Notes: a model not told the origin generated them from the letters alone. A stretch of 64,000 nt of DNA from Desulfovibrionaceae bacterium (GCA_963677785.2 CAXXDH010000003.1:2255534-2319533); one strand, 5' to 3'. Counted from the first letter of the stretch, positions 7,987-43,054 are shown. Numbers and translations: made by a program.

Positions 7987-8006
7987 TGCATCCCCATCAA
8001 CGTTTT

Positions 8007-8060
8007 CCTCCTGGAAATCGCCTGCATTATGCCGCTACCCACGGCCCCCCCGGAAGGGGC
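8007..8060 (-). mobile_element. solo inverted copy of the ISL3 left end (IS remnant)
   Basis: The reverse complement of 8007-8060 matches the left end of the intact IS (8167-8220) except for about 9 substitutions. Weaker similarity continues to about 7990. No transposase ORF follows. Confidence 0.55.
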
Positions 8061-8166
8061 AAAAAGGTATTTCCAAGTCCATGACATCAGTTGATAGGCT
8101 GGTCCGAAAAAACCGAGCCAATTCCTGGCTGTCACAGTCGGCATTCACATGCGATTTATATTTGTT

Positions 8167-26931: not shown

Positions 26932-29412
26932 ATGGAATGCTGCCTCTCGCATCAGGAACAAATGCTGGAAAACAAAATCAAGGGTCTTGATAATCCGCAT
27001 CGCGAAACACACAAGCGCGTCTTCAAGATTCTCGACAGGATCGAAGGGCTCACCCCTTCCATCGACATTCAACGCGCCTTGTATTTTACGCAGTCCATGC
27101 AGGAGACGGAAGGCCAGCACCTGACCTTGCGCTGGGCAAAAGCGCTGTACAATATCGCCGAGAAAATCGATGTGTTCATCGATGAAGACAGCCTGATCTG
27201 CGGCCGTGCCGGCGCCGAAGGCCGCTACGGCATCCTGTATCCGGAGCTGGACGGCGATTTTCTGGATCTGGCGGTCAAAGAGCTGCCCACCCGTGAGAGC
27301 TCTCCCTTCACCATCACCCAGGAAGACGCCGACACGGTTGTCAACGAGATCGCTCCGTACTGGAAGGGCAAAACCTATCATGAAGCCTTGAACAAGGCCT
27401 TCAATTCCGAACTGCACGCGCTGACCTACGATGATCCCGACGGACTGCACTCCCGCTACATCGTCAACGAGACTTCCTCGTTTCGTTCCTGCCTGCAGTG
27501 GGTGCACGACTATGAAGTGATCCTGAAACGGGGCTTCGGCGGCATCCGGCGGGAAATGCAGGAAAAGCTCTACGCCCTGGATCCGTTTTCCCCCATCGAC
27601 AATGTCGAAAAGAAGCCCTTCATCGAAGCCATTATTCTGGTTTGCGACGCCATCACGCTTTGGGCCAACCGTCATGCCGATCTGGCCGAAGAACTGGCCG
27701 CCCAAGAGCAGGATGAAACCCGCAAGGCCGAACTGCTCGAAATGGCCAGAATGTGCCGCAAGGTTCCCGAGCATCCGGCCGAGACCTTTCATGAAGCCGT
27801 GCAGTCCCAGTGGATGACGCAGATGTTTTCCCGTCTGGAGCAGAAGACCGGTACGATTGTCTCCAACGGCAGAATGGACCAGTACCTGTACCCCTATTAC
27901 AAGAAAGACGTGGAAGAAGGCCGCCTGGACGACCTCAAGGCCATGGAACTTATCGAATGCATGTTCGTGGGCATGGCGCAGTTCATCGACCTCTACATCT
28001 CGCCCCAGGGCGGTGATTTCAACGAAGGCTACGCCCACTGGGAAGCCGTCACCGTCGGCGGACAGACCAAGGAGGGCCTGGACGCCACCAACGAACTTTC
28101 TTATCTGTTTCTGCGGTCCAAGCGTGAGTTCCCGCACCATTACCCAGACCTGGCCGCCCGTATTCACGCGCGCGCGCCGCAACGTTTCCTGGCCGAGGTC
28201 GCCGAAACCATCAAGGAAGGCTCCGGATTCCCGAAACTCATCAACGATGAGGAAGTCATTCCCCTGCACCTTTCCAAGGGCGCCACGTTCGAGGAAATCT
28301 ACGACTACGCCATCTCCGGTTGCGCGGAAATCCGTATGCCCAATCGCGATACGTACACTTCCGGCAACCCCTACATCAACTTTGCCGCGGCCATTGAAAT
28401 GGTTTTGTACAACGGCAAAATGCTGAAGTACGGCGACGAACAGCTCGGCCCCGTCACCGGCGATCCCTGCGAATTCAAGAGCTTTGACGAATTCCTCAAC
28501 GCCTACACCGTGCATCACAGGAACCTGCTCCGGAACGCCTTTACCCAGCAGGCCCATGTCATCAACCTGCGCAAGGATCATTTCGCGGCTCCGCTGGCCG
28601 ACGCCATGCATGCGCTTTGCCGTAAATACTACGTTGACATCCATCAGCCCGACGTGCCCGAAGGCATCGACCTCGGCTACTTCGAAGTCATCGGCTACGG
28701 TACGGTCATTGATTCGCTGGCCGCCGTCAAGAAGCTGGTGTTCGAAGACAAGAAGCTGACCATGAAACAGGTCATCGACGCGTGCAAAGCCAACTTTGAG
28801 GGCTACGAAGACGTCAAGGCGCTGCTCAAGACCGCTCCCTGCTACGGCAACAACGACGAATACGCCGACAAGCTCGGCAAATATGTGGACGCCCTGAGCG
28901 TAGAATACGCGGAAGCCTACCAGATGGAACTGGGCGTGCACCTGGACGTACGCTACGTACCGTTCACTTCGCATGTTCCGTTCGGACGCGTGGTCTCCGC
29001 CACTCCCAACGGCCGCGTGGCCTGGTACCCGCTCTCCGACGGTTCGTCCGCCTCGCACGGTGCGGACAAGAACGGCCCCACCGCCATTCTGATGTCCAAC
29101 TACACCACGAAAAACTTCAGCCACCGCGAGCGCGCCGCCCGCCTGGTCAACATCAAGTTCACTCCCAAATGCGTCGAGGGCGAGGAAGGGACGCAAAAGC
29201 TGGTCGACCTGATCCGGGCCTACTGCGACCTGCGCCTGTGGCACATTCAGTTCAACGTTATCAACGCGGATACCCTGATCAAGGCCCAGAAGAATCCCGA
29301 GCATTACCGCAACCTGATCGTACGTATCGCGGGTTACTCGGCCTACTTCTGCGACCTGTCCAAGGATCTTCAGGATGATTTGATCGCACGTACCGCACAC
29401 GAAGTCCTGTAA
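26932..29412 (+). CDS. islA: glycyl radical enzyme of the 1,2-eliminase class, probably isethionate sulfite-lyase
   Basis: 826 aa. C-terminal glycyl-radical motif [10 protein letters not shown] (G801) and Cys loop SGCAEI (C464, E466). R185, Q189 and R674 sit where I recall the sulfonate-binding residues of IslA, at a constant -4 offset. Adjacent activase, TRAP transporter and TauE. The family call is secure. The substrate call is recollection plus context. Confidence 0.85.
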
Positions 29413-29425
29413 CGCCGCAAGGACT

Positions 29426-29466
29426 AAAAGGGGCAGGGGACGGCTCTGCCCCTTTTGTTCGTTTTC
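29426..29466 (+). terminator. intercistronic hairpin between the radical enzyme and its activase (possible attenuator)
   Basis: aaaaggggcag (29426-29436) pairs with ctgcccctttt (29446-29456), followed by gttcgtttt. Confidence 0.45.
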
Positions 29467-29489
29467 GCAGAACCCAACAAGGAAAACCG

Positions 29490-30416
29490 ATGAGCTCGAT
29501 TATGGACAAGAAAATCAAGGGAACCGTTTTCAGTGTACAGAAATATTCCGTACATGATGGTCCCGGCATCAGAACCATTGTGTTCATGAAGGGCTGCTCA
29601 CTGCACTGCACCTGGTGTTCGAATCCCGAATCCCAGGAGTTCAAACCGCAAATCGCCTATAATCGAAACAATTGCATCGGCGTTGAGAACTGTACGCATT
29701 GTATGAAGCATTGTGCGGGCGGCGGCATAAGCGCCGGTGCGGACGGCAAGGTCGACGTCGACCATGGCAAAATCAAAGACGAACTTTTGCTGGCGGACGT
29801 CTGTCCGGGCAATGCCATCATCGTTTATGGCGAAGAGCAGAGCGTGGATACGATTCTGAAGCGGGTGGAGGAGGACGAGCGCTTCTACGCCCGTTCCGGC
29901 GGCGGCATGACGCTTTCCGGCGGCGAGCCCTTTGCCCAGCCCGAATTTGCGCTTGCGCTGCTGCGCGAAGCCAAGGTCCGGCGTATCAATACGGCTGTGG
30001 AAACCTGCGGACAGGCTCCCTGGGAGGTCATTGAATCCTGCCTGCCGTACGTGGACTATATCCTGTACGACATCAAGTCCATGGATGATGCGAAGCACAA
30101 GGAACATACCGGGCGTACCGGAGCGCATATCCGGGAAAATCTCGTCAAAATCAAAGAAAAATTTCCTAAAATCAAGATTCGGGTCCGTACGCCGGTTATC
30201 CCCGGTTTCAACGACAGCGTAGAGGACATCCAGGCGATTATCGACTTTGTGAAATCCTTGCCCGGTGAAAAGTGCGAATACGAGGCGCTGCCTTTCCACC
30301 GTATGGGGCAGCCCAAATACATTAATCTTGGAAGAGACTACGCCTATGCGGACATCGTCAAACTGGATGATACGCTCGTTGCCGCAATCAAGAATCTGGA
30401 AGAAGAATATAAATAA
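29490..30416 (+). CDS. islB: glycyl-radical enzyme activating protein (radical SAM)
   Basis: 308 aa. CSLHCTWCSNPE radical-SAM cluster motif plus an additional Cys-rich ferredoxin-like insert (CIGVENCTHCMKHC...). Immediately downstream of the radical enzyme. Confidence 0.85.
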   Translation: MSSIMDKKIKGTVFSVQKYSVHDGPGIRTIVFMKGCSLHCTWCSNPESQEFKPQIAYNRNNCIGVENCTHCMKHCAGGGISAGADGKVDVDHGKIKDELLLADVCPGNAIIVYGEEQSVDTILKRVEEDERFYARSGGGMTLSGGEPFAQPEFALALLREAKVRRINTAVETCGQAPWEVIESCLPYVDYILYDIKSMDDAKHKEHTGRTGAHIRENLVKIKEKFPKIKIRVRTPVIPGFNDSVEDIQAIIDFVKSLPGEKCEYEALPFHRMGQPKYINLGRDYAYADIVKLDDTLVAAIKNLEEEYK

Positions 30417-30679: not shown

Positions 30680-33400
30680 ATGTCAGCCAGCAAGGCGTAT
30701 GAGTTTGCGTTCACCGTGGATAATGAAAAGCCGGACGATACGTTTACCGTCGTCAGTTTCAAGGGGCACGAGTATGTTTCCAAACCCTATCGTTTTGAAA
30801 TCGTGCTGGCCGCGGACGATCCCAATCTCAAGGCCGAGGATTTTGTCCATCAAACCTGTCACCTGAAAATTACCGGACATGATAAAGACGCTCCGCGGAT
30901 CATTTCCGGGGTTGTCTTTCTGTTTCGCCATATCCGGCGCCTGAATGGCAAATACGTCTACCAGGTCGTGCTGATGCCCCGTTTGCAGCTGCTGACGTTG
31001 AACACCCGGACCCGGGTGTTTCTGAAGCAGAGCTGCCTGACCATGATTGAAAACATCCTCAAAGATGCGGACATCGAATACAAGATCCGTATCGCCGGAA
31101 ATCAGAGCTACCCGCAACGGGAGTACTCCTGCCAGTTCGAGGAAACGGATTTCGCCTTTGTCAGCCGTTGGCTGGAAAAGCAGGGCATTGTTTATTTTTT
31201 TGAAGAGCGTGAGGATGGAAAGGCTGATATTCTGGTGCTGGCCGACGCCAATGACGCACAGGCGCCCTGCCGTAAAGACAACAAGGCCATGCGTTATACG
31301 CCCGCTTCGGGCATGCATGCCGGAAGGCGTGAAGACGTGGTGCAAACCTTTGTTTCCGAACATGGCAGCACCCCGAAGTACATTCACTTGCGTGATTACA
31401 GCTATGAAGGCCAGCCGGCCGATCCCAGGGCCTCGGCCGAAGTGCAGAACAAGACAGCCATGGGCGTTGTCTGGCAGTACGGCAATACCTTTTTGTCCGA
31501 ACACTACGGCGTGGGCGGGGAAACCATTCTGGCCCAGCAACTGGAAAGTACGGAAGCCGCCTACCAGGGTGAATCCTTTTGCCCTGACCTGCGCGCCGGC
31601 ACCACCATGAAGCTGGAAAAGCATTACCGCGACGAATACAACGATGAGTTCTATCTCTACCATGTCACACATGAGGGCGTGAACAAGAAGTTCGTGTCGC
31701 ATCCCCCCGAAAGTGGTGCTCATGAACATCATCCAGGTCATGATCCGCGCCAGCCCGATAGAGGTTCCCATGAGCACCATCCCAATCACGATCCGCACCA
31801 TCCCGACCAGGGGCAAATGTACTCAAACGTATTCAATGCCGCACCTGCCAAAGTCCATTACCGTCCGCGCATGCTGACGCCGGTGCCGCGTTTCACAGGC
31901 ATGCTCACCGCCTTTATCCATGCCGAAGGCGACATGGATCTTTTCGCGCAAATGGACGACAAGGGGCGCTACAAAGTGCGTATGCCGTTCGACCTCTGGG
32001 AACCGAAAAAACAAAGTGCGGAACCCGATGCGAAAGGCAAGGCGTCCCATTGGATCCGGCTGACAGAACCCTTTGCAGGCAATGCGTTGGGAGAAAAAGC
32101 GTACGGCATGCATTTTCCATTGTACCAGGGCACGGAAGTGCTGCTCAGCTTTGTTGAAGGCGACATCGACCGCCCTGTGATCGTGGGGGCGCTCTACAAC
32201 CAATCCCACGACAATCCGGTCAACAATGCCGACCCCTACCGGAATGTTATCCGAACCAAGAACGGATGCAAACTGGAAATGTACGACAAGCCAGGGCACG
32301 AATCCATTGCCATGGCCTGTCCGAACAATGAATCCCTGGTGGTCTGCAATCCGCAAGGCGTTACCGTGGGGGCCAAGGAAAATGCCTATTCATTCAAAGT
32401 GAGCGACAGCTTCGACGTGAAAGTAGGTTCGGACGTTTCCTTCTCGGCCGGTTCCAGCACCAGCGCCTTCGGCGGGACCAAAGCCAGCCTGACCGTTGGT
32501 TTCCACACCAGTATGACTGTAGGGATGTCTGTTTCCGCGGATTTGGGCGGCAAGGTGGATATCGGCGGGAAGAAAAACCTGGTCCATTCGGATTTCAGCG
32601 GTTCAGCAGAAGATACGCTGTCCTTGAAAGGCGGCATGAACGTGGCGCTGAAAAAATATTACAAGGCCATCAAATATGCGCTGGGTATCGGAGGCCTGGG
32701 ATCGATCCCAACCGGGTTGGGCAGCTGGGCGGCTGTTGCCGGAGCAACGCACCAGAACAAGGATATCCACGACACGGCGGCGATCATCGGGGGATCTGTC
32801 TCTACAAGCCTCGGGCTGCTGGTCGAAACCTTCGGCAGGACCATCGGCATAGGAACCTATAAGGCGGTGAGTTCGAAAAAGAAGGACGCCATGTATACGG
32901 GCATCCTGAATCTGGGCAAGGACGGCGCCGGACTGCTTGTGAACAGTCCGGTGGGGAGCAGCGGGAAATGCAGCATCAGTGTCACCAATCTTCTGGGTAA
33001 AACGTCGGAGTTTTCCATCAGTCCCCAGGGGAAGCACATGTCGCTGACGAACTGCGAAGATGCCGTTATGATGTTCAGCGAGGGGAAGTCTATAGAATTG
33101 TATACTTTTAATCGGAGTTCTGTATCAGGCATGGTCAATCTGGTAGAACTTAAGCAGGCTTCGTTGTCGTTGAAACATAAAGCCAACAGTGCATTGAGCC
33201 TGGAAGACAATTTGATTACCTTGGAAACCAAGCCAAGCAAGATAGGAATGGATCCAAAGGGGCTTTTACTCAAAGCCGATGATTCCAATTTCATCGACAT
33301 CGGGAGCACCGGCATTCAGATGAAATTCACTAAACCCACCAAAATCAGCAGTTCAAGCAGTTTGAAGCTAAACTCAGAAGGCATGGTCATGCTGGGTTGA
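30680..33400 (+). CDS. vgrG: type VI secretion spike protein VgrG (paralogue 1, with a His-rich insert and a long C-terminal extension)
   Basis: 906 aa. gp27-like N-terminus (YRFEIVLA..., QFEETDFAFVSRWLEKQGIVYFFE) and gp5 OB-fold (GTEVLLSFVEGDIDRPVIVGALYN), then about 340 aa of beta-helix-like extension. AGGAGG RBS. Confidence 0.9.
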   Translation: MSASKAYEFAFTVDNEKPDDTFTVVSFKGHEYVSKPYRFEIVLAADDPNLKAEDFVHQTCHLKITGHDKDAPRIISGVVFLFRHIRRLNGKYVYQVVLMPRLQLLTLNTRTRVFLKQSCLTMIENILKDADIEYKIRIAGNQSYPQREYSCQFEETDFAFVSRWLEKQGIVYFFEEREDGKADILVLADANDAQAPCRKDNKAMRYTPASGMHAGRREDVVQTFVSEHGSTPKYIHLRDYSYEGQPADPRASAEVQNKTAMGVVWQYGNTFLSEHYGVGGETILAQQLESTEAAYQGESFCPDLRAGTTMKLEKHYRDEYNDEFYLYHVTHEGVNKKFVSHPPESGAHEHHPGHDPRQPDRGSHEHHPNHDPHHPDQGQMYSNVFNAAPAKVHYRPRMLTPVPRFTGMLTAFIHAEGDMDLFAQMDDKGRYKVRMPFDLWEPKKQSAEPDAKGKASHWIRLTEPFAGNALGEKAYGMHFPLYQGTEVLLSFVEGDIDRPVIVGALYNQSHDNPVNNADPYRNVIRTKNGCKLEMYDKPGHESIAMACPNNESLVVCNPQGVTVGAKENAYSFKVSDSFDVKVGSDVSFSAGSSTSAFGGTKASLTVGFHTSMTVGMSVSADLGGKVDIGGKKNLVHSDFSGSAEDTLSLKGGMNVALKKYYKAIKYALGIGGLGSIPTGLGSWAAVAGATHQNKDIHDTAAIIGGSVSTSLGLLVETFGRTIGIGTYKAVSSKKKDAMYTGILNLGKDGAGLLVNSPVGSSGKCSISVTNLLGKTSEFSISPQGKHMSLTNCEDAVMMFSEGKSIELYTFNRSSVSGMVNLVELKQASLSLKHKANSALSLEDNLITLETKPSKIGMDPKGLLLKADDSNFIDIGSTGIQMKFTKPTKISSSSSLKLNSEGMVMLG

Positions 33401-33572: not shown

Positions 33573-36185
33573 ATGGCGGAGAAACATCCATTTGCATTCG
33601 CGTTCAGCGTGGAAGGCCTGGACTCGGATACCTTTTCCGTGGTCAGTTTCAAAGGGTACGAGCATCTTTCCAGGCCGTACCGTTTTGAAATTGTGCTGGC
33701 ATCCGCCGAATCCGAACTGGATTTCGCGAAGATCCTATACAAACCCTGCACACTGGAAATACGCGGCAAGGGCGAGCCGAGGATTTTCAGCGGCCTGGCG
33801 TACCTGTTCCGCCATGTCCGGCAGGCGGGCAAACGCTACATCTACCAGCTGCTGCTTATGCCCAGGCTGCAGCAGCTGTCCATTGGCGCCAACGCGCGGG
33901 TGTTTCTGGACAAGAGCTGCATCAGCGTCATCGAAGAGGTGTTCAAGCAGGCGCACGTGCCTTATCAAAACCGGATGCAGAGCAACAGCGCCTATCCCAA
34001 GCGCGAGTATATCTGCCAGTTCAACGAATCCGATTTCAATTTCGTCAGTCGCTGGCTCGAAGCCCAGGGAATTCACTACTTTTTCGAACAGCAGCAGAAC
34101 TCCGAACTGCTGGTGCTGAGCGACACCAGCCTGGCCCATGTTCCCTGCCGCGAGAAGGACGCGCCCATGGTCTACGCGCCGCCTTCGGGCCTGGACCATT
34201 TGCAGCGTGAAGACGTGGTCCATTCGTTTATCTCCGAACATTGCTGTCTGCCCGAGTCCGTCAGTTTCAAGGATTACAACTACGAGCTGTCCAAGGCCGA
34301 AGTGACGGCAACGCAACAGGTCGACTCCAACGGACAGCATACGGAGTACCACTACGGCGACAATTTTCTCGGTCAGGGCTACGGCACCAGTCCGGCCCAG
34401 GTGCTCGCCCAGCAGTATGGAAGCCTGGAGGGCGTTTTCCATGGCAAGAGTTATTGTCCGGATCTGCGTACGGGGACGACTTTTGCGCTCAAGGATCATT
34501 ACTACACGAAATACAACGCCAATTACCTGCTGTACAGCGTCGAGCATGAAGGTACGGACCTGAGATTTATGAAACAGGAGCTCTCCGGGCCGGACCGCAG
34601 CGAAACTCAGCTCTACGAAAACACTTTTCGCGCGCTCCGGGCCGATGTCACCTACCGGCCGCGTCGTACGACCACCGTGCCCCGCTATACGGGCTTGCTG
34701 ACCGCGGTTATCGACGCTGAAGGACAGGGGCAGTACGCCGAACTCGACTCCAAAGGGCGCTATAAGGTCCGCCTGCCTTTTGATTCGGAGGACAAAGCCC
34801 AAGGCAAGGCCTCGCACTGGATCCGTCTGTCCGAACCCTACGCGGGCAACGCGGCTCAGGAACAGGCCTTCGGCATGCATTTTCCGCTGCTCAAAGGCAC
34901 GGAGGTCTTGCTCAGCTACGTGGAAGGGGACATTGACCGCCCCATCATCGTCGGTGCCGTATACAACGCCAACAATGAAAATCCGGTCAACAGCGGCAAC
35001 AAGGTCCAGAACGTCATCAAAACCAAGGGCGGCAACCGCATTGTGCTGGATGACACGGAGGGAAAGGAATCCATCTCGATGGCCACAGCCGGAGGCAAGT
35101 CCATGCTGGTCATCAATGCGGACGGCGTGAATCCCGGCATCACCGAAGCGACCACGGAAAAATGCGTCAAGGCCAGCTGGAACGACAGCGTGGAAGCCAA
35201 ATGCGGCTCCAGCATGGATTTTACCGCGGGTTCTTCGCTGGGGGCTTTCGGCGGCACCAAGTCCGAGATCACCGTGGGATTCAGCTCGGGCGTATCGGTC
35301 GGCGCGTCTCTGGAAGCGGCGCTTGGCGGCAAGGTGGAACTGGGCGAGACCAGCAGCTGGATCAGCTCCGAATCCTCCTCGTCAGCGGACGAGAACGTCA
35401 GCCTGCAGGGGGGCATGAACACCGTGGTCAAGGGGTATTACAAAGCCATCAAGGCTTCCATGATCGTGGCTTCGGTGAGTTCGCTGGCCACGGGCGTGGG
35501 CTCCTGGGCCGCCATTGCCGGGGCCAATGAAGACAACCTGGGCATCAACCGCAAGGCCGCGGTCATTGCCGGGTCCATCGTGGGCAGCATCGGCCTCATC
35601 GGCCAGATTGCCGGCACGGCCTTTGCCATGGGCTGCTACCTGAAGATGAAGTCCAAAAAGAGCAATTCCTTTTATACGACCACAATGGATCTGGGCAAGG
35701 ACGGCGCCGCACTCACGGTACGCAGTTCGCTCCTGCACAACGTGGGCTGCGATATCATGGTCGTGGACGGGCAGAACGCCAATCCGCTCAAGAGCAACGC
35801 GTCCGTGCTGTCCATCGCGCCCAAGGGCGCGTCCATTACCCTGGCCAATAAGGCCAAAGCCAAGATTACCCTGGACAAAGGCCAGAAAATTACTCTGGAC
35901 CTGAACAACGGCAGCAAAAAAATTGAAATGAGTTCCTCAGGTATTTCCATGGCCAGCCAGGGCGTTGCCGCGGTCAAGATAACAACGAGCCAGCTCATTC
36001 TGCAAAAGGACAACGCCGCGAACATCAAACTCGGTTCGGGTGGCGCGTTCATCAAGGGCGACGGCACCGGCCAGAACTACATCAACGTGACCAGCTCCGG
36101 CGTACGCATGCAGTTTGCCAACGGCCAGCTCACGAGCAAAGGCATGCTCAGGGCCAACGCCAACGGCATGATCATGCTGGGCTAG
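33573..36185 (+). CDS. vgrG: type VI secretion spike protein VgrG (paralogue 2)
   Basis: 870 aa, collinear with paralogue 1 (YRFEIVLA, QFNESDFNFVSRWLEAQGIHYFFE, GTEVLLSYVEGDIDRPIIVGAVYN). It has the same C-terminal architecture and tail ...GMIMLG. Confidence 0.9.
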   Translation: MAEKHPFAFAFSVEGLDSDTFSVVSFKGYEHLSRPYRFEIVLASAESELDFAKILYKPCTLEIRGKGEPRIFSGLAYLFRHVRQAGKRYIYQLLLMPRLQQLSIGANARVFLDKSCISVIEEVFKQAHVPYQNRMQSNSAYPKREYICQFNESDFNFVSRWLEAQGIHYFFEQQQNSELLVLSDTSLAHVPCREKDAPMVYAPPSGLDHLQREDVVHSFISEHCCLPESVSFKDYNYELSKAEVTATQQVDSNGQHTEYHYGDNFLGQGYGTSPAQVLAQQYGSLEGVFHGKSYCPDLRTGTTFALKDHYYTKYNANYLLYSVEHEGTDLRFMKQELSGPDRSETQLYENTFRALRADVTYRPRRTTTVPRYTGLLTAVIDAEGQGQYAELDSKGRYKVRLPFDSEDKAQGKASHWIRLSEPYAGNAAQEQAFGMHFPLLKGTEVLLSYVEGDIDRPIIVGAVYNANNENPVNSGNKVQNVIKTKGGNRIVLDDTEGKESISMATAGGKSMLVINADGVNPGITEATTEKCVKASWNDSVEAKCGSSMDFTAGSSLGAFGGTKSEITVGFSSGVSVGASLEAALGGKVELGETSSWISSESSSSADENVSLQGGMNTVVKGYYKAIKASMIVASVSSLATGVGSWAAIAGANEDNLGINRKAAVIAGSIVGSIGLIGQIAGTAFAMGCYLKMKSKKSNSFYTTTMDLGKDGAALTVRSSLLHNVGCDIMVVDGQNANPLKSNASVLSIAPKGASITLANKAKAKITLDKGQKITLDLNNGSKKIEMSSSGISMASQGVAAVKITTSQLILQKDNAANIKLGSGGAFIKGDGTGQNYINVTSSGVRMQFANGQLTSKGMLRANANGMIMLG

Positions 36186-36190
36186 CCGGT

Positions 36191-36241
36191 ATATCGCACG
36201 AACGCCCCTGAAAATCTTTTTCAGGGGCGTTCGTGCGATAT
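36191..36241. repeat. 51-bp perfect palindrome (24-bp stem, 3-nt loop) directly after vgrG2
   Basis: atatcgcacgaacgcccctgaaaa (36191-36214) and ttttcaggggcgttcgtgcgatat (36218-36241). No U-tract follows. Confidence 0.8.
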
Positions 36242-36247
36242 GCGGGT

Positions 36248-36428
36248 TAGGGGCTGTCTCTAAATTATTGTCTGCTACGTTTGGCTAGAATTCCATCATG
36301 CTGCGTTTTCAGAAAAAAATGCCCCTTGACGTAGCAACACTACGCCTGCGGCCCATTTTCTTCTTCAGCCTTGCCTGTTGAAATTCTTGCTCAAACTCGC
36401 GACGAAAATAATTTAGAGACAGCCCCTA
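36248..36428. mobile_element. MITE-like element: 181 bp bounded by 22-bp perfect terminal inverted repeats ending in TA
   Basis: taggggctgtctctaaattatt (36248-36269) and aataatttagagacagccccta (36407-36428). There is no ORF inside. The right repeat supplies the last ~12 codons and the stop of the ORF 36391..36861. Confidence 0.4.
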
Positions 36429-36861
36429 GTATAATCTCATACGAATACCGAGCCCAGTCACATCTCACAATAACATCAAGTTCCGGCCTATAACACTCAC
36501 ATCGGACCGATAAACTATAGCGTATTCTCTGTTGCGGTAAAATAGATAGATTTAAAGCGATTGCTTTTTTGCCAGATTTATTTGTTTTTGCAGTGACTGT
36601 CCCATAATTACTGCTTTTGTAAACTTCAATTGTTCCGACTGGAATTTTGACATTCGTTATTACGATTTTATTTTTTGTTGCATTATATATTGAGAATTCA
36701 ACATCATATCCCGTTTCTGTGGACGTATACTTTTCTAGACTGACAGTAGGAATACCGTCTATACGTTTACGCCACCAAACAACCAAGGAAAGAACTGCGA
36801 GCAAGCCGCCACATACTAACGATAAAAGGTTTGCCCACCATCCAAACGACATAGTTTCCAT
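36391..36861 (-). CDS. hypothetical membrane-anchored protein in an A/T-rich patch
   Basis: 156 aa. One N-terminal TM helix (WWANLLSLVCGGLLAVLSLVVWW) followed by a beta-rich region. Composition is very different from the flanking vgrG and rpe genes. Confidence 0.45.
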   Translation of the reverse strand: METMSFGWWANLLSLVCGGLLAVLSLVVWWRKRIDGIPTVSLEKYTSTETGYDVEFSIYNATKNKIVITNVKIPVGTIEVYKSSNYGTVTAKTNKSGKKAIALNLSILPQQRIRYSLSVRCECYRPELDVIVRCDWARYSYEIILGAVSKLFSSRV

Positions 36862-37652
36862 TTCTAACAGCTATCTCGGTTAAAATTATTAGTATCATTT
36901 CGGGTTACGTTGATTTTCGTCAAAATGTACGACAACCTCAAGTAGATTGTCGATTAAAAATGGGCAGCAGAAATACTGTCGTTATATCCGACGGCATTGC
37001 CCGCCTTTGCAGTTCGGAATCAAGCAGCACTTTTTTTCTCAGAAGCGAGATAAATCCAGGTATACGCTTCGCTCAAATCTGAGCAAAACCTCCGACGGGA
37101 GTGGTGCAAGCCAAGGCAATACTATTTGTACGCTCATCCGGCCGAGGCTTGTGGTCTGCCTCGCCCGGAACGGTCATGCGGCCTTGATTTTTGCGGTCAT
37201 AATGATCTCCTTTGTTGAGCGAAAACGGCATCAGCACGGGATCCGCCGGTTGAGCAGGCTTCCAACAGCGAGGGACAAACCGAAGTGATAGCGCCCATCC
37301 GCAAAAAGAAGAGATCAAGGCCGCATTTGCCGATTTTCCCGGACTCTGCAACGGTTTCAGGAAAACAAGCGCTTGTGCTTCCCCGCTGGATGCGGGAAAG
37401 GACTACCTGGAGTTTTCAAAAGCCTATGAAGAAGATCCGGACGTGGCCGTTGCGGAATATCAGGATCTTTTTGACGGACTTCTCAAAAAGCAGCGCGACT
37501 ATTCCATGACAATAACGTAAAGCTGAGCTGTTTCCGGGCGTCTCCGCCGGGAAAGGGCAGGGCGGAAGGGACTCAGGGCGGCAAAGAAATGCCTCTTGAC
37601 TTGAGCTTCAAAACAATGCAGCCCTGGGCTATTACATTTTGTAGGAGTTGCC

Positions 37653-38330
37653 ATGTCTGCCGAATCGCGCGTCATATTGACGCCATCGTTGCTGTCGTCT
37701 GATTTTTCCCGTATCGGGGAGGAGTTGAAAGCCCTGGAGCAGGCCGGATTGTCCTGGGTGCACTGGGACGTGATGGATGGTCGTTTCGTCCCCAACATCA
37801 CCTTCGGCCCGCCCGTGATCAAGGCCTGCCGCAAGTGCTGCGGGTTGTTTTTCGACGTCCATCTGATGATCAAGGAACCCGACCGCTATCTGCAGGATTT
37901 TGCCGATGCCGGCGCCGACCTGCTTTGCGTGCACGCGGAAGCCTGCGTGCATCTCGAACGTACGGTCAGTGAAATCGCACGGCTGGGCGTCAAGCCCGCC
38001 GTGGCCCTGAACCCGCATACGCCTCTGGAATTCGTTGAATACCTGCTGCCGCAGCTCCATATGGTGCTGATCATGAGTGTGAACCCCGGGTTCGGCGGCC
38101 AGAGCTTCATCCCCTTCAGCATGGCGAAAATCCGCCGCCTGCGCCGGATGATCGACGAGCAGAAAGCCGATACGCTGATTCAGGTGGACGGCGGCGTCTC
38201 ACCGGGCAACATCCGCGAACTGGTTGAATTCGGAGCCAATGTCTTTGTCTCGGGCTCGGCCTTTTTCAACCATCCGCCCTACGATACGCGCTACAAGACA
38301 TTCATGGAGGCCGCTTTGCCCGACGGTTAG
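37653..38330 (+). CDS. rpe: ribulose-phosphate 3-epimerase
   Basis: 225 aa. LTPSLLSSDF, HWDVMDGRFVPNITFG, FDVHLMI, MSVNPGFGGQSF, QVDGG motifs. AGGAG RBS. Confidence 0.95.
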   Translation: MSAESRVILTPSLLSSDFSRIGEELKALEQAGLSWVHWDVMDGRFVPNITFGPPVIKACRKCCGLFFDVHLMIKEPDRYLQDFADAGADLLCVHAEACVHLERTVSEIARLGVKPAVALNPHTPLEFVEYLLPQLHMVLIMSVNPGFGGQSFIPFSMAKIRRLRRMIDEQKADTLIQVDGGVSPGNIRELVEFGANVFVSGSAFFNHPPYDTRYKTFMEAALPDG

Positions 38331-38361: not shown

Positions 38362-38760
38362 TCACGAGTTGACCATGACTTTGACCTGGCTGGGCGCGAT
38401 GCAGGAGCCCACGATATTGCCGTTGTTGTGCTGGGTCACATCCCCCATACGCACGGCAAAGGCGCCTTCCAGCTTGACCTTGTTGCTGCTCATGGAGAAT
38501 TCGGTCTTCTGCATAAAGGTTGAAGATTTGACTCCTCCGGCCACGCCCGGGTTGTCCCCGTTGGTCACCGGGATCTTGGAGGATTTGTTCAGGGCGGGCA
38601 TGCCGCATACAACCACTTTTTTGGTCACGGGCTGGGCCATGGAGGGCACGGCCAGATTGGGGTAGGGCACTGGCGTGGGCTGGCCCGTGGGCGGCAGGGG
38701 GGTCTTGCAAAGGTCGGGCGTACCCTGTGCCAGGCCGCCTTGGGTGGTGCAACACTGCAT
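38362..38760 (-). CDS. PAAR-like DUF4150 protein (T6SS spike tip), with no toxin extension
   Basis: 132 aa. PTPVPYPNLA..., ...KKVVVCGMPALNKSSKIPVTNGDNPGVAGGVKS... pattern of DUF4150 PAAR-like domains. Last gene of the convergent operon. AGGAG RBS. Confidence 0.8.
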   Translation of the reverse strand: MQCCTTQGGLAQGTPDLCKTPLPPTGQPTPVPYPNLAVPSMAQPVTKKVVVCGMPALNKSSKIPVTNGDNPGVAGGVKSSTFMQKTEFSMSSNKVKLEGAFAVRMGDVTQHNNGNIVGSCIAPSQVKVMVNS

Positions 38761-38806
38761 GGAATGCTCCTGAGTTTCAGTTTTCTGGTTTCAAGGCGAA
38801 AATGAG

Positions 38807-39475
38807 TTATCCCAAATGGATCCGTTCGCCGTCGATGCTGACGTCTTCATCGGCCAGCACTTTTGCCTTGCCCGCTTTCAGGTGATAGCTTTCATCCACC
38901 CGGGTCCGCATCCGTTTGGCTTCCACGGTGTCCAGATTCGAGACCCGGCGCAGGCTGTCCCGGATGTTCTGCACCACCAGGCGCACCGTGCTGCGCATGC
39001 TGTCCAGCAAAATAGTGGCCTTGTGCGCGCGGGTTTCCACCCGAAAGGCCGAGAGGCCGAAATCAACAAAATGGGCGCTGCCCGAGACACCGCGCAGGCT
39101 GATGTCCGGGCTGTTCAGGGCCAGTCCCTGCTGCGCTTCGATTTCCACTTTGCCGGGCAGGGAAAGCGTACTGCTGTCGGGAGTGCTTTTTTCCAGCACG
39201 TTGAGAATATAGCCCGAGCCGTTGCCCGCCACAAAAGCCAGCACCAGATCGCCGGGTTCGGGCAGCAGCAGGCAGCCGGCGGCCCGGCGTGCGCGGAGCA
39301 GCGAGCCGTTTTCAAGAGCCAAGGAAAAAAAGCCTGCTTCCCCGGCGTCGCCCGCTTCCCGGTTATCCCCGGCCAAAACATTGCCCTGCAGCAGCTCTCC
39401 CGGCATTCCAGGGGCGGAATGGTCGCCGGGTTTGGATTTCATGGGTTTGAAAGAAAGCACTTTCATCTCTTTCAT
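38807..39475 (-). CDS. DUF3540-like protein
   Basis: ORF 38807..39646 trimmed to the ATG at 39475 (MKEMKVLSF...), which has AGGAGA upstream and lies just after the upstream stop at 39495. The size, the position between the pentapeptide protein and the PAAR-like gene, and the tail ...DGERIHLG fit DUF3540 as I recall it. Confidence 0.6.
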   Translation of the reverse strand: MKEMKVLSFKPMKSKPGDHSAPGMPGELLQGNVLAGDNREAGDAGEAGFFSLALENGSLLRARRAAGCLLLPEPGDLVLAFVAGNGSGYILNVLEKSTPDSSTLSLPGKVEIEAQQGLALNSPDISLRGVSGSAHFVDFGLSAFRVETRAHKATILLDSMRSTVRLVVQNIRDSLRRVSNLDTVEAKRMRTRVDESYHLKAGKAKVLADEDVSIDGERIHLG

Positions 39476-39494
39476 TCGTTTTTCTCCTGAGGCG

Positions 39495-40499
39495 TTATTG
39501 GCCGAAATGGTGCGCCGGCTGCCAGTCTTCGGCCTCGGCCAGGTCTTTGTCCGTACCGCGTACGGTGCCGGTGTCGGTCTGAGTGAATGTTGCGTTTTCA
39601 ATGTCCGCGCGGTGCATGTTGGTATGCAGCAACACGGCCTTGTCAAAGCGGGCCTCTTGCAACCTGGCGTGGGAGAAGTTCACATAGGCCAAGCGCGCTC
39701 CGGAAAAGTCCGTGCTGGCGCAGTGGGCTTTGACGAACAGCGATTCGTTCAACGTGGCTCCGGAAAAGGACGCGCCCGTGAGCATGGCCTGGCTGAAATC
39801 GCTTTGCCGCAGGGTGCTGTTTGAAAAGTCCGCCTCCAGGGCCTGGGCTTTGGCGAAACGGACGTAGGCGCCCTTGCAATTCGTAATGCGCGCGTTGTTC
39901 AGCTTGGCCTCCTCAAACGAGACTTTGGTGAGATCCTGGCTGTCGAATACGGCGTTGGACAGGCTGGAGCCATTGAACTGCGCCATCTTCAGAATGCAGT
40001 CCGGAAAACTCTGGTCGTTCAGGTTGGCTTGGTACAGCAGAATTTTTTCCAGCCTGGTCCCTGCAAAAGTGACCGTACGCAGGTCCAGCTCCGGCAGGTA
40101 GGCACGGAACATGTCTGCGCCTGTGCAGTTGACGCGCGTGAGGTCGCAGCGCTGGAGCATGGCCTGCTCCAGGGTGGCCTGGCTGCAGTCCGCGTCTTTC
40201 AAGGAAACCTGTTCGAACTGGCTGTGGGACAGGTCTGCCTGGACAAGAACGGCCTTGTCGAGCAGGCAAGCCGAAAATTGCGCTTCAACCAGATTCGCTT
40301 TGTTCAGGTTTACTTCGCTCAGGTCGCATTCCTGAAGCGCGCAGCCCTGCAGCACGGCCTTGGAAAGGTTCGCACCGCCCAGCCGGACGCGTTCCAGGGC
40401 AGCTCCCTGAAAATCAAAGCCCGCGAGGTTCGCTCCGCTCAGGTCCAGGTCGCGCAGGGCGCCGTTTTGGCGTATCTGGTCCGCAAGATCTTGTATCAT
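39495..40499 (-). CDS. pentapeptide-repeat protein
   Basis: 334 aa, almost entirely A(D/N)LxX pentapeptide repeats (ANLAGFDFQGAALERVRLGGANLSKAVLQGCALQECDLSEVNL...). Confidence 0.9.
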   Translation of the reverse strand: MIQDLADQIRQNGALRDLDLSGANLAGFDFQGAALERVRLGGANLSKAVLQGCALQECDLSEVNLNKANLVEAQFSACLLDKAVLVQADLSHSQFEQVSLKDADCSQATLEQAMLQRCDLTRVNCTGADMFRAYLPELDLRTVTFAGTRLEKILLYQANLNDQSFPDCILKMAQFNGSSLSNAVFDSQDLTKVSFEEAKLNNARITNCKGAYVRFAKAQALEADFSNSTLRQSDFSQAMLTGASFSGATLNESLFVKAHCASTDFSGARLAYVNFSHARLQEARFDKAVLLHTNMHRADIENATFTQTDTGTVRGTDKDLAEAEDWQPAHHFGQ

Positions 40500-40519
40500 T
40501 AGTATTGTCCTTGCTGCGG

Positions 40520-43054
40520 TTAGTCCTCAAACAGCGCCGGATCCAGGAGCGTTCGCTTCAGGTTCAGCTCGGTCATTTTGGTCTCTCCCCGCCGGATTTT
40601 AAACAGATCCGCGCCGAACAGGTTGGAGTGTCCCAGTCTGGCGCCGACCAGGCTTGCTTTGCGCAGCGAGGCGAAAAACAGATTGCAGTGTTGCAGGTGC
40701 GCTCCCTCCAACAGGGCCTTGCTGAAATCCGCCTGCCGGGCAATCACGCCATTGAAAGTCGCGCCGCATAAATCCGCCCCTGCAAAGTCGGCGCGATCCA
40801 TTGCGGTATGAATGCATCTGGCGTTGGGCAAGCGGGCGCCGCCCCATTTCGCATCGTCCAGCAGCGCATGACTGAAATTCGGCTCCACCAATTCCGTGGT
40901 CGCATCGGCCCGCGAGTCGGTCAGGTCCGCGCTTTCAAAACGGACTTCTTCACCCTGGGCGCCGAAAAAGCGGGATTCTCGCGCTTTGGCTCTGCTGAAC
41001 AGCACGGAGCCGATTTTGGCGTTGCTGAAATCCGCGGCCTCGAGTCCGGCTTCGCTGAAATCCGAACCAGTGAGATCCGCGCCGGAAAATTCGGCCATGG
41101 TTGCCGTGGCCTTGTCCGCGGCGATATGCCACATCAGGGCGTTCTGGAACAGGGCCTCGGAGAGTTCGGCCTCGCGCAGCTTGGCGTCGGTAAAATCGCA
41201 GTCCGTGAAATCTCCGCCCGAAAGCACGGCCTGGCGCAGGTTGGCTGCTTTGAAGCAGGCCTTTGGCGCCGTGGCCTGGGAAAAAATCGCGTATTCGCAA
41301 CGGGCATTGGAAAAGTCCGCTTCGTCGAGCAGCGCATTGCTGAAATCAGCCCGCGCGCAGTCCGCGCCGCTGAAGTTGCAGCCCGAAAGCACGGCTTTGC
41401 TGAAATCAGTATCCCGCAGATCCTGTCCGGAAAAGTCCTGCCCGGAAAGGTCCTGCCCGGCGTAGCCCTGTGCTTCGGGTTCCGGTTCTTTCTGCGGGGC
41501 CACATCCGCGGCTGTTTCAGCAGCAGCCTCCGTGGCGGCCAGCTCGGCTTCTGCCGCGGCCAGGGCCTGTTCCGCTTCCGCAAAGGCGGTCAATGCCGCA
41601 CTGATTTTGCTCTTGGCCTCGGCGGGCAGCTTGTCGTTATCCAGCGTCTGTTTCATGAGCGTCTTCAGGTCCGGGACCTGGTCCATTCCCGAGCGTTCCC
41701 TGGCCATACGCTCCACGTCGGCCATGGTCAGCCCTTTTTCCTGCAACAGCTTTTGGGTTTCCGCCTCGATCTGGGCCGTGGCTTTTTGCAGCTCGGCCTC
41801 GGTCAGCGGCTTTTCGTCCACGGGGCTTTTGGGCGGCAGGTGTTTCTCCAGTTCCGCGTCGCTGATGCCGTGCTTTTTCTGCAGGGCTTTGGTTTCCGCT
41901 TCGATTTTGGCGGTTTCCGCCCTGAGGGCGGCCAGCTCCGGATCCTCGGCTTCCGGTTTTTCGGGTTCGGGAGCTTCGGCGGCTGTTTCTTCCGGCCGGG
42001 CCGCGGCTTCAGGTTCTTCCGCTGCTTCGGCTTCAGCGGTCAGACCTTGCTCCTCGGCCAGCTGTTGCTGCAGAAACGTCTGGTAGTACGCGCTGGTCCG
42101 CGGAGTTTCCTCCTGCATTTCCCAGACGGCCAGCAGATGGGTGACGTCCGAGGCCTCGTCATCCAGAACAGGGAGTTGCGCGCGGTAGCAGAGGATGGCC
42201 AGCTCGCTTTCCGGCAGCAGCCAGAGCGTATCCGGCCGCGCTTCTCCCTCTACGAATGTTTCCGGCCCTTCACCTTGTTTTTGGGCGAAAATACGGGCCC
42301 GCAGACCCGGCAGCGTGGTTTCCTGAAAGCGCTTTTGCGGATGCATTCCTTCCACATATACGGGCGCATCACCGTGCAAAAACTCTTTGAAACGCTGGTC
42401 TTCCGGGGCGGTCATGAAAAATTCCGGATTGGTGTCCGTGGGCAGGGAGGGCCAGGTATCCCGCAGCCAGTTTTTGTCGAACGTACCGTAGTGCTGCGAA
42501 CGCCGGGGCGAATCCGGAGGATAGGCCGTCAGTCCGGCGGGCTTGTGCGACGCGTCCTGCGGGACGGCGGTTTTGCTCGGGGCCAGAATGTTGGGGAGCT
42601 CGGTGCTGCCGTCTTCTTTGACGGCAAAGCCCTTGCCGAGGGGGTTGATGGCGTGGCCGGGGCCGCCGTAGGCGTATTGCCAGCAGATCCGCAACGGATC
42701 CAGTATTTCCGGATCGTTCTGCACGCCCATCTGCAAGGAACGGTTGCCGTAGATTTCCAGGGTCTTTTCCAGGCCGTCCACGCGCAGCCTGATACGCGCG
42801 GCCCGGGCGTTGTCTTTGGGGTGGCAGCGGCCGTACACGAGATATTCCGCCCGTGGCTTGGGTTCGCCCGTGTCGAAAATTTCAGCCTCCAGCAGTGTTT
42901 TTTCCAGGGTTTCCCACATGGAGCTTTCTTCCAGCAGCTCGCGCGGGCTCTCAAAGGAAAAAAACGCGTAGGCTGAAACGCACAACCTGTTCTTTCCGGC
43001 AAAAGTGAAAGGCCGCGGCAACAGGCCGAGATTCGTGGGTTTGACTATTTTCAT
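40520..43054 (-). CDS. DUF2169 (T6SS adaptor family) - acidic coiled-coil linker - pentapeptide-repeat fusion protein
   Basis: ORF 40520..43090. The ATG at 43054 (MKIVKPTNLGLL...) is preferred because of the GAGGAG upstream. The N-terminal ~330 aa show DUF2169 hallmarks (GTFDKNWLRDTWPSLPTDTNPEFFMTAPEDQRF). The middle is a Glu/Ala/Pro-rich helical region. The C-terminal ~300 aa are pentapeptide repeats. Confidence 0.8.
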   Translation of the reverse strand: MKIVKPTNLGLLPRPFTFAGKNRLCVSAYAFFSFESPRELLEESSMWETLEKTLLEAEIFDTGEPKPRAEYLVYGRCHPKDNARAARIRLRVDGLEKTLEIYGNRSLQMGVQNDPEILDPLRICWQYAYGGPGHAINPLGKGFAVKEDGSTELPNILAPSKTAVPQDASHKPAGLTAYPPDSPRRSQHYGTFDKNWLRDTWPSLPTDTNPEFFMTAPEDQRFKEFLHGDAPVYVEGMHPQKRFQETTLPGLRARIFAQKQGEGPETFVEGEARPDTLWLLPESELAILCYRAQLPVLDDEASDVTHLLAVWEMQEETPRTSAYYQTFLQQQLAEEQGLTAEAEAAEEPEAAARPEETAAEAPEPEKPEAEDPELAALRAETAKIEAETKALQKKHGISDAELEKHLPPKSPVDEKPLTEAELQKATAQIEAETQKLLQEKGLTMADVERMARERSGMDQVPDLKTLMKQTLDNDKLPAEAKSKISAALTAFAEAEQALAAAEAELAATEAAAETAADVAPQKEPEPEAQGYAGQDLSGQDFSGQDLRDTDFSKAVLSGCNFSGADCARADFSNALLDEADFSNARCEYAIFSQATAPKACFKAANLRQAVLSGGDFTDCDFTDAKLREAELSEALFQNALMWHIAADKATATMAEFSGADLTGSDFSEAGLEAADFSNAKIGSVLFSRAKARESRFFGAQGEEVRFESADLTDSRADATTELVEPNFSHALLDDAKWGGARLPNARCIHTAMDRADFAGADLCGATFNGVIARQADFSKALLEGAHLQHCNLFFASLRKASLVGARLGHSNLFGADLFKIRRGETKMTELNLKRTLLDPALFED

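Follow-up and report, generated by a model that had tools for sequence, protein, structure and literature searches.

Two recent studies describe T6SS accessory proteins of the kind considered here. In Serratia marcescens Db10, TvpAB, TvpB, TvpC and Paar1 are each needed for VgrG1-dependent killing and for Hcp secretion, and secretion of TvpAB and TvpB was never detected (Monlezun, Earl & Coulthurst, EMBO J 2026, PMC13373197). [quoted passage not shown] VgrG1 pull-downs recovered TvpAB, TvpB and Paar1 without TvpC, and TvpC pull-downs never recovered VgrG1; the TvpC and VgrG1 complexes exclude each other, and TvpC is needed before the VgrG1 complex can form (PMC13373197). The same work defines Class III by DUF3540, pentapeptide proteins and small effector-less PAARs. 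A grouping of DUF2169 genes by gene neighborhood places ~37% of them in synteny type C (Sachar et al., J Biol Chem 2025, PMC11883445). In Burkholderia, the sheath does not assemble without the Tag proteins. A preliminary description of the present locus had called its accessory genes essentially uncharacterised, a statement that these two papers (PMC13373197, PMC11883445) have overtaken.

We analyzed a 64-kb stretch of DNA from a Desulfovibrionaceae genome, referred to in its entirety as the window, which carries on its minus strand a four-gene operon at 38362-43054. In order of transcription the genes are tvpAB (844 aa; 40520..43054), tvpB (334 aa; 39495..40499), tvpC (222 aa from its ATG; 38807..39475) and paar (132 aa; 38362..38760). 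All four open reading frames were found, co-directional and closely packed as previously noted, with tvpB 20 nt after tvpAB and the following gaps 19 and 46 nt. GAGGAG lies 4 nt ahead of the tvpAB ATG and AGGAG lies ahead of the tvpC ATG, although the mechanical ORF of tvpC opens farther upstream at a TTG. The next gene on the plus strand, rpe (ribulose-phosphate 3-epimerase, 37653..38330; Pfam Ribul_P_3_epim, 3.1e-78), converges on paar with the two stops 31 nt apart. It is a housekeeping gene placed between the operon and a vgrG array, not a system component; it shares 97% amino-acid identity with its counterpart in the closest relative, L001 (dN/dS 0.03), and holds the same position in L001, L003 and L004. 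Beyond rpe are two vgrG genes on the plus strand, one of 870 aa (33573..36185), the probable cognate spike, and a paralogue of 906 aa (30680..33400). The vgrG genes are thus convergent with and downstream of the tvp operon, rather than upstream of and co-directional with tvpAB, and since they lie past rpe their co-regulation with the operon is not guaranteed. We read the four genes as a Class III Tvp module encoding spike-assembly chaperones for a T6SS VgrG-PAAR, and put the probability of this reading at about 85%.

This arrangement raises the question of whether the locus is a relic without activity, its vgrG genes having been uncoupled from the tvp operon by rearrangement around rpe to leave an orphan island. 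No T6SS core gene was found in the 64-kb window, because of which we infer, rather than observe, an active T6SS machine in this genome, and the gene order is non-canonical. In addition, a window-specific insert of ~1.4 kb (36186..37570, no strand assigned) adjoins vgrG in the vgrG-rpe interval, where L001 has 86 nt only. The insert bears a palindrome with 33-nt arms, a pair of 25-nt inverted repeats and a low-GC ORF of 156 aa with an apparent N-terminal membrane-spanning segment, for which searches gave no family match. However, the frames of all six T6SS genes are intact, and their dN/dS values against L001 are 0.13-0.26 at dS 0.56-0.73 (tvpAB 0.17, tvpB 0.25, tvpC 0.21, paar 0.13); the six genes are under purifying selection. 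The convergent vgrG-vgrG-rpe / paar-tvpC-tvpB-tvpAB layout is also kept in three further, related Desulfovibrionaceae genomes, at least four VgrGs with the same C-terminal module occur in the same genome, and isolated (orphan) vgrG islands are nothing unusual in T6SS. We therefore regard a relic as highly unlikely.

The domain content of the four proteins was searched with Pfam, and the matches for the operon, rpe and the VgrGs were far beyond chance. TvpAB matches DUF2169 (PF09937, 2e-62) over aa 20-291, covering profile positions 2-294 of 294, and the pentapeptide families (2.8e-38) from aa ~528 to 844; the two domains are joined by an alpha-helical linker (aa ~301-525) that is acidic, as had been proposed, with a pI of 4.4 and 50 D+E vs 23 K+R over aa 301-525. 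Residues 1-817 of the 844 align, at 27% identity (E 5e-58), to the TagAB-type protein encoded in the Burkholderia locus L037. TvpB is a stand-alone pentapeptide-repeat protein, with a match across its 334 aa to Pentapeptide (PF00805, 3e-50) and one to Pentapeptide_4 (1.4e-42), and TvpC matches DUF3540 (PF12059) at 8.7e-36. PAAR matches Tox-PAAR-like (PF13665, the family earlier named DUF4150) at 1.4e-35 over aa 12-118 of 132, contains a PVPY (PIPY) motif at aa 30-33, and is 36% identical to the TagD-type protein from the same Burkholderia locus, L037. All of the earlier domain calls, i.e. DUF2169, pentapeptide, DUF3540 and DUF4150, were upheld. The locus therefore has the DUF2169 domain, its fusion to pentapeptide repeats, a separate pentapeptide-repeat protein, a DUF3540 TvpC and a small, effector-less PIPY-type PAAR that are traits of Class III, and lacks one trait, a long vgrG directly upstream and co-directional; the association with vgrG is supported and the order is not. 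The Class III Tvp set is recently described and widespread, and the window operon is an ordinary member of it, with the convergent layout, a setting without any T6SS core gene in the window and a rare VgrG C-terminal module as its lineage-specific traits.

Neither Pfam nor NCBIfam identified a toxin or immunity domain in the four operon proteins, and PAAR ends after its fold with rpe as the next gene, so the reported lack of a toxin/immunity pair holds. The same description took the toxin-less PAAR to leave the pentapeptide-repeat proteins as the most plausible cargo. We surveyed 43 DUF3540 loci from other species, 41 of them with a PAAR gene, and found zero residues after the PAAR domain in 41/41, so that a PAAR without a toxin is no anomaly but what characterizes the DUF3540-containing class; Class III PAARs are likewise toxin-less in the literature (PMC13373197). 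Since a toxin-less PAAR is universal in Class III, no cargo is called for among its neighbors. That the pentapeptide proteins are secreted, for example as DNA-mimicking gyrase inhibitors in prey, has some appeal, in that secreted pentapeptide proteins are known elsewhere, both pentapeptide parts of the window are acidic (pI 4.8-5.0), and weak NCBIfam matches were obtained for PipB and PipB2, two T3SS effectors, as well as for Qnr and MfpA. The Qnr, MfpA and PipB matches are nevertheless far under the curated cut-offs, and any pentapeptide repeat gives such scores: the window proteins reached 59 and 78 bits with the Qnr family model (cut-off 240) and 61 and 49 bits with the MfpA model (cut-off 360), 4- to 8-fold under the family cut-offs. 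An identity as Qnr/MfpA topoisomerase-protecting proteins was rejected on these scores. One pentapeptide domain is moreover covalently joined to the PAAR chaperone domain, and the Serratia proteins, besides escaping detection among secreted products, are required for firing itself, measured as Hcp secretion, and not for one toxicity (PMC13373197). Together with the universally toxin-less PAAR, these points make secreted cargo very improbable, and we take the pentapeptide-repeat proteins most likely to be chaperones rather than toxic cargo.

The two VgrGs share 42% identity, and both match Phage_GPD and Phage_base_V in Pfam; the 870-aa protein also matches NCBIfam VgrG models, and its AF2 model matches PA0091 VgrG1 (4mtk) with an E value of 3.6e-43. 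Each carries the same C-terminal module, an extension of ~400 aa past the gp27/gp5 core in which no known toxin domain was matched. This module is rare: of 1.84 billion, just 33 representatives match the C-terminal 401 aa of the 870-aa VgrG at E<=1e-3. Within it, hydropathy and AF2 predict a hydrophobic helical hairpin at aa 617-694 (35421..35654, plus strand), with a Kyte-Doolittle 19-aa mean of 1.85 at aa 662-682 and AF2 helices at 617-651 and 661-694 (pLDDT <50), a layout kept in distant homologues. It is tempting to speculate that the module, with its predicted hairpin, is a candidate for the missing payload. In the survey, the canonical order vgrG -> DUF2169-PPR -> PPR -> DUF3540 -> PAAR was present in 28/43 loci, and in the canonical loci L007, L008, L010-L012, L019, L049, L050 and L052 VgrGs with this same C-terminal module lie directly upstream of tvpAB, which supports the pairing of vgrG and tvp across rpe.

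TvpC is confidently predicted to have an N-terminal OB fold and is expected to end in a trimeric beta-prism. In the AF2 monomer the OB-fold strands occupy aa 27-95; pLDDT is >90 across aa ~51-100, lower ahead of that stretch and <50 through most of aa 144-222, and a monomer model cannot give the prism or the trimer. Foldseek with this model returned OB folds as best matches and central spikes as weak ones, and a profile-profile comparison of the TvpC and VgrG families with hhalign gave no match. The C-terminal motif ADEDVSIDGERIHLG (aa 208-222; 38810..38854, minus strand) is the predicted PAAR- and TvpB-contacting tip. A tail pattern, [DE][DE]V.[IV]D[GA]..[IV].[LMI]G, is family-wide and holds in the 43 loci; A208 and D215 do not vary, and G222 almost never does. 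In Serratia TvpC, I208 and V210 form the PAAR interface, and D199, D204 and D206 contact TvpB and TvpAB (PMC13373197); mapping these contact residues onto the window TvpC implies a register that we infer.

TvpC ends in ...ERIHLG and the VgrGs end in ...NGMIMLG (870 aa) and ...EGMVMLG (906 aa), and this echo had been taken as a hint that the DUF3540 protein stacks on or extends the spike. The resemblance of the tails stands: TvpC and the neighboring VgrGs have in common a hydrophobic-x-hydrophobic-Gly end, and in L022 the last five residues of TvpC and VgrG are identical, KIDLG. A DUF3540 protein permanently built into the fired spike, bearing PAAR at the VgrG tip, also draws some support from the Polyangiaceae, in which the VgrG C-terminal module is a separate ORF and this distal protein must stack on a truncated VgrG, making stacked spikes conceivable. 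However, the stacking part of the proposal does not fit with Serratia, where TvpC forms a pre-complex in which VgrG replaces it and the pull-downs of VgrG1 and TvpC exclude each other (PMC13373197); the N-terminal OB fold of TvpC offers no obvious docking onto a beta-prism tip, and the VgrGs already own a PAAR-type tip. We consider a permanent spike part very improbable. Because the Serratia TvpC and VgrG complexes are mutually exclusive, the echo most likely reflects competition for one PAAR cap.

The mechanism that we propose for the chaperone module is transferred from S. marcescens Db10, a gammaproteobacterium; the identities of ~27-36% were measured against the Burkholderia homologue. The DUF3540 protein would trimerise into an OB fold and a short beta-prism and act as a VgrG surrogate, with the 132-aa PAAR-like protein capping its ...IHLG tip. 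The DUF2169 domain of TvpAB would cover the cap's hydrophobic face, while the prism of TvpC would be wrapped by the helical linker and the pentapeptide beta-helix of TvpAB, and TvpB would shut the wrap in the manner of a seat belt. The TvpC surrogate would then be swapped for the real, long VgrG, most likely either of the convergent neighbors ending in ...GM(V/I)MLG. The chaperones would remain in the cell when the spike is fired, and the payload would be VgrG itself or effectors encoded elsewhere, not the pentapeptide proteins.

Compared with known systems, the TvpAB-TvpB-TvpC-Paar1 set of S. marcescens Db10 is alike in its four proteins and their order, and both systems have an unusually long VgrG without a recognisable toxin domain. 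The likeness is by protein description rather than sequence comparison, and the host of the window belongs to a phylum other than that of Serratia. The vgrG of Serratia lies upstream, whereas those of the window are convergent, split off by rpe and present as two tandem paralogues; a Vai1-like (DUF3192) immunity gene was not detected, and where Serratia VgrG has a continuous 186-A beta-prism, the C-terminus of the VgrGs here is predicted to contain a hydrophobic helical hairpin. The tagAB/tagB/tagC/tagD genes of Burkholderia T6SS-5 (also T6SS-3 and T6SS-4) form the same gene string, and TagD is, as is the window PAAR, PAAR-like without an effector domain. Unlike the window, the tag locus lies inside a T6SS cluster, and VgrG5, which terminates in ...IEATVIFM and not in an h-x-h-G tail, bears at its C-terminus a fusogenic domain that has been characterised. 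Synteny type C, a bioinformatic category only, has the content of the window, namely a multidomain DUF2169-PRP protein followed by a pentapeptide gene, DUF3540, DUF4150 (PIPY) and a nearby vgrG (PMC11883445); the window differs in where its vgrG genes lie and in the way they point.

The P. aeruginosa vgrG1b cluster (PA0095-PA0100) had been cited as a similar string, which conflates two types, as this cluster has neither pentapeptide repeats nor DUF3540. Like the window, it encodes a DUF2169 chaperone, a PAAR domain of the DUF4150 type and an OB-fold protein that mimics VgrG, predicted as such in the window, but it has DUF6484 instead of DUF3540, the thiolase-like PRK06147 (TvpD) instead of the pentapeptide proteins, a single-domain DUF2169 protein, and a PAAR that carries the Tse7 nuclease in fusion, for which Tsi7 is the immunity gene. 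Identity of the window operon as Class II Tvp or synteny type A was rejected, given its DUF3540 TvpC, the lack of a thiolase-like gene, its PAAR without a toxin and rpe as the next gene. Finally, the Qnr/MfpA DNA mimics have in common with the window pentapeptide proteins the right-handed pentapeptide beta-helix and its acidity, but they are ~180-220 aa long, compared with proteins of 334 aa or fused in the window, where the gene neighborhood and genetic results on homologues favor a chaperone role.

The operon is a member of the known Class III Tvp (tagAB-tagD) type, and we consider it highly probable (roughly 0.85) that it supplies the neighbouring VgrGs with a PAAR cap and with the chaperones for assembling their spike. 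Its four genes lie on the minus strand: tvpAB (40520-43054; 844 aa, with GAGGAG before the ATG), tvpB (39495-40499; 334 aa), tvpC (38807-39475; 222 aa, with AGGAG before the ATG) and paar (38362-38760; 132 aa). They are separated by gaps of 20, 19 and 46 nt, and 31 nt lie between the paar stop and that of the convergent rpe (37653-38330; Pfam, 3.1e-78). Using Pfam, we found DUF2169 (2e-62) and pentapeptide repeats in TvpAB, pentapeptide repeats (3e-50) in TvpB, DUF3540 (8.7e-36) in TvpC, and the Tox-PAAR-like/DUF4150 domain (1.4e-35) over aa 12-118 of the 132 aa of the PAAR protein, in which PVPY at aa 30-33 represents the "PIPY" hallmark of DUF4150 (PMC11883445). The TvpAB linker (aa 301-525) is strongly acidic, with a pI of 4.4. 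Every domain call of the preliminary description was thus upheld at high significance, as was its claim that a toxin and immunity pair is missing, since neither Pfam nor NCBIfam detected a toxin or immunity domain in the four operon proteins. Inspection by eye upstream of tvpAB gave no basis for calling a sigma-54 promoter, the GG-GC spacing being 12 nt rather than 10, and a sigma-70 and terminator scan gave a signal no higher than the shuffled expectation.

DUF3540 loci were surveyed by scanning for the conserved TvpC motif in one genome per species, with a 7-sequence TvpC subset as the query, and were annotated with HMMs made from the window proteins. This recovered 43 distinct loci from Thermodesulfobacteriota, Myxococcota, Beta- and Gammaproteobacteria, and others. 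The co-directional order vgrG, DUF2169-PPR, PPR, DUF3540, PAAR was present in 28 of the 43, while five loci showed a Polyangiaceae layout in which a truncated vgrG and an extra ORF precede tvpAB, two from the clade of the window had the convergent layout with rpe, one had another gene order, and seven were interrupted at contig ends. Of these loci, 41 contain a PAAR-like gene, and in every one of the 41 the encoded protein has zero residues beyond the PAAR domain; therefore, a PAAR without a toxin is the norm for the DUF3540 class. The study of Serratia marcescens had suggested an effector-less PAAR rule from a smaller strain set (PMC13373197), and these 41 loci provide independent support for DUF3540 systems always pairing with small effector-less PAARs. 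Two loci, L049 (10001-16379; OY762289.1) and L050 (8001-14341; Desulfovibrio inopinatus), read vgrG-tvpAB-tvpC-paar without a stand-alone tvpB, and this DUF3540-type sub-variant is absent from the three-class scheme. The closest relative (6.3 Mb) thus has two tvp sets.

No T6SS core components were found among the approximately 45 other ORFs scanned across the 64-kb window, and the locus is therefore an orphan vgrG/tvp island. Its neighbours are housekeeping or metabolic genes, which encode a glycyl-radical enzyme and its activase, a TRAP transporter and sigma-54 activators, along with a nitroreductase, a DUF4198 protein and chemotaxis genes. The nearest relatives, which are Desulfovibrionaceae MAGs with a TvpC identity of 75-78%, share the unusual layout of tvpAB-tvpB-tvpC-paar, convergent rpe, and two or three vgrG genes. 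Against the 6.3-Mb relative, the six T6SS genes have dN/dS values of 0.13-0.26 (dS ~0.6-0.7; rpe dN/dS, 0.03), and these low values show that the genes are kept by selection. The lineage-specific features are the rearrangement, with a convergent vgrG array and rpe in between, and the orphan location. These data extend Class III Tvp, a recently defined accessory T6SS system, to the sulfate-reducer lineage Desulfovibrionaceae, and show that a tvp-paar operon can function, or at a minimum stay under selection, apart from its vgrG genes and the T6SS core. Both the extension and the uncoupling are helpful for annotation and are no surprise.

The flanks of the island were also compared. A PFL-like glycyl-radical enzyme (826 aa) and a radical-SAM activase (26932-30416) lie directly upstream of the first vgrG, and the same flank in L001, the locus of the 6.3-Mb relative, carries other genes (KduI and a short-chain dehydrogenase), so the vgrG-side boundary is not conserved. 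Farther away, a low-GC block (0.35-0.40) at 4001-9483 is probably a foreign island; it contains three ORFs (4644-5729, 5745-7097 and 7084-7986) with no Pfam or PADLOC match, adjoined by an ISL3-family transposase at 8230-9483. Between the vgrG stop and rpe, the window has about 1.4 kb of extra sequence (36186-37570) where L001 has 86 nt only. At this insert are a perfect-looking palindrome with 33-nt arms (36182-36250), a 25-nt inverted repeat pair (36248-36272 and 36404-36428) and, on the minus strand, a low-GC ORF of 156 aa (36391-36861) with an apparent N-terminal membrane-spanning segment. Neither Pfam nor NCBIfam returned a family match for this ORF, and it was rejected as a Vai1-like immunity protein, there being no match to DUF3192 or any other family.

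The preliminary description had favoured the pentapeptide proteins themselves as the cargo, possibly as gyrase mimics. NCBIfam did return matches to Qnr, MfpA and PipB2, but with scores 4- to 8-fold under the curated cut-offs, as would be seen from generic repeat similarity. In Serratia, VgrG1-dependent killing and Hcp secretion need each of TvpAB, TvpB, TvpC and Paar1, and secretion of TvpAB and TvpB was never detected (PMC13373197). Taking the NCBIfam scores together with these genetic and secretome data, which speak against a cargo role, we regard a pentapeptide payload as very improbable. [quoted passage not shown]

Proteins of the TvpC family end in a near-invariant motif, [DE][DE]V.[IV]D[GA]..[IV].[LMI]G. 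Deltaproteobacterial-type VgrGs have a similar hydrophobic-x-hydrophobic-Gly end, and in locus L022 TvpC and VgrG are identical in their last five residues; this tail is absent from Burkholderia VgrG5-type proteins. The three C-terminal tails had been quoted correctly in the preliminary description, and the echo between TvpC and VgrG that it pointed out is real and meaningful. Its reading of that echo, as a hint that TvpC stacks on or extends the spike, is improbable; the echo instead fits TvpC and VgrG offering one PAAR cap the same docking surface in turn. In Serratia, the TvpC-TvpAB-TvpB-Paar1 and VgrG1-TvpAB-TvpB-Paar1 complexes are mutually exclusive and the former is a prerequisite for the latter; I208 and V210 of TvpC form the PAAR interface, while D199, D204 and D206 contact TvpB/TvpAB (PMC13373197). 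With an offset of 11, these contacts would map to I219/L221 and E210/D215/E217 of the window protein. The published prediction for Serratia TvpC is a trimer that combines an OB fold with a beta-prism, mimicking VgrG without the gp27 domain (PMC13373197). Since neither BLASTP nor hhalign detected sequence homology between TvpC and VgrG, the term "VgrG mimic" rests on that predicted structure together with the OB fold and the tail motif. In our AF2 model, a monomer that cannot display a trimeric prism, the OB fold alone was resolved (strands at aa 27-95; pLDDT >90 over aa ~51-100), and Foldseek matched it to OB folds and weakly to central spikes.

The more interesting lead than the operon itself is a module of the two VgrGs, which lies outside the region singled out by the preliminary description. 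The 906-aa (30680-33400) and 870-aa (33573-36185) paralogues, both recognised as VgrGs by Pfam, are 42% identical and have in common a 400-aa C-terminal module that matched no Pfam family and, at E<=1, gave only sub-threshold beta-prism-type matches. A word-indexed search with the C-terminal 401 aa yielded one match, because low-complexity words crowded the candidates, and was replaced by HMMER and a profile query; the exhaustive HMMER search found the module to be rare, with 33 representative clusters at E<=1e-3 in 1.84 billion. In the source genome it is present in at least four VgrGs. The aligned members begin with Gly/Ser/Thr-rich beta repeats, an LxGGxN motif and an amphipathic helix, continue with two hydrophobic segments of ~20 residues separated by a polar loop and followed by a basic patch, and end with regular beta repeats and a GxIxLG tip. 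The second hydrophobic segment of the 870-aa VgrG has a Kyte-Doolittle mean of 1.85. The AF2 model of this protein matched PA0091 VgrG1 (E 3.6e-43) and contains helices at aa 617-651 and 661-694 (pLDDT <50), flanked by a disordered stretch and by a confident beta-repeat region (aa 703-870; pLDDT 77-90). The conserved pair of predicted hydrophobic helices (residues 617-694), which interrupts the beta-prism in both paralogues, is encoded at 35421-35654, and the homologous region of the 906-aa VgrG at about 32600-32850. The latter protein also has a His/Pro-rich insert in its hub domain, HPPESGAHEHHPGHDPRQPDRGSHEHHPNHDPHHPDQG (residues ~340-378; 31697-31813), which is missing in the paralogue and may bind metal.

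A module-bearing VgrG lies directly 5' of tvpAB in nine canonical loci (L007, L008, L010-L012, L019, L049, L050 and L052), which supports pairing the window VgrGs with the tvp operon. In the five Polyangiaceae loci the module is a separate ORF of 510-605 aa between a ~490-aa VgrG and tvpAB, and thus behaves as a separable unit. In these split spikes (L026, L028, L034, L044 and L047, from Polyangiaceae/Sorangium; for example, 1022-2497 and 3219-5006 of L028), the VgrG ends after the OB fold, and the separate ORF encodes Gly-rich beta repeats, a hydrophobic hairpin and a beta-prism, ending in NELT(I/V)(Q/G).

Serratia Class III VgrG1 has an unexplained membrane-depolarising activity and no recognisable effector domain (PMC13373197), which makes a membrane-inserting hairpin in the shaft an attractive hypothesis. 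We propose, tentatively and as a possibility short of a likely one, that the payload is built into the spike shaft, with the putative hairpin (aa ~617-694) interrupting the beta-prism and inserting into prey membranes. If it does insert, it would be a molecular candidate for the effector-less depolarisation by the Serratia protein, and would explain why Class III needs big wrap-around chaperones, namely TvpB and the linker and pentapeptide domain of TvpAB, beside toxin-less PAARs. The module could make the Class III spike payload directly testable. No conserved immunity gene is adjacent to the window locus. Right after paar, L050 (14408-15235) and L052 (15397-16215) encode a conserved protein of ~272 aa (34% mutual identity) with four TM segments, in which a TM helix at the N-terminus is followed by a beta-rich domain and then by TM helices at the C-terminus. 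This protein is a candidate immunity protein; it has no counterpart in the window and no similarity to the 156-aa ORF of the insert.

The gene content of the operon corresponds to the "synteny type C" of Sachar et al. 2025, in which a multidomain DUF2169-PRP is accompanied by a pentapeptide gene, DUF3540, DUF4150 and vgrG, and into which ~37% of DUF2169 genes fall (PMC11883445). Monlezun, Earl & Coulthurst 2026 characterised the same gene set in Serratia marcescens, with TvpAB, TvpB, TvpC and Paar1 as its products, and defined Class III by DUF3540, pentapeptide proteins and small PAARs lacking an effector domain (PMC13373197). The mechanistic steps of the window operon would follow those of these homologues, from which they are transferred. 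In Burkholderia, TagAB, TagB, TagC (DUF3540) and TagD are required for sheath assembly, and TagD is PAAR-like without an effector domain (2026 review; PMC13584744). Residues 1-817 of the 844 of the window TvpAB align at 27% identity (E 5e-58) with a TagAB-type protein of Burkholderia, and the window PAAR is 36% identical to a TagD-type protein. The analogy previously drawn with the P. aeruginosa vgrG1b cluster is wrong in kind, as that cluster belongs to Class II (PMC13373197), or synteny type A (PMC11883445); it differs from the window operon in that its DUF2169 protein has a single domain and is accompanied by DUF6484, a thiolase-like protein and the PAAR-nuclease Tse7.
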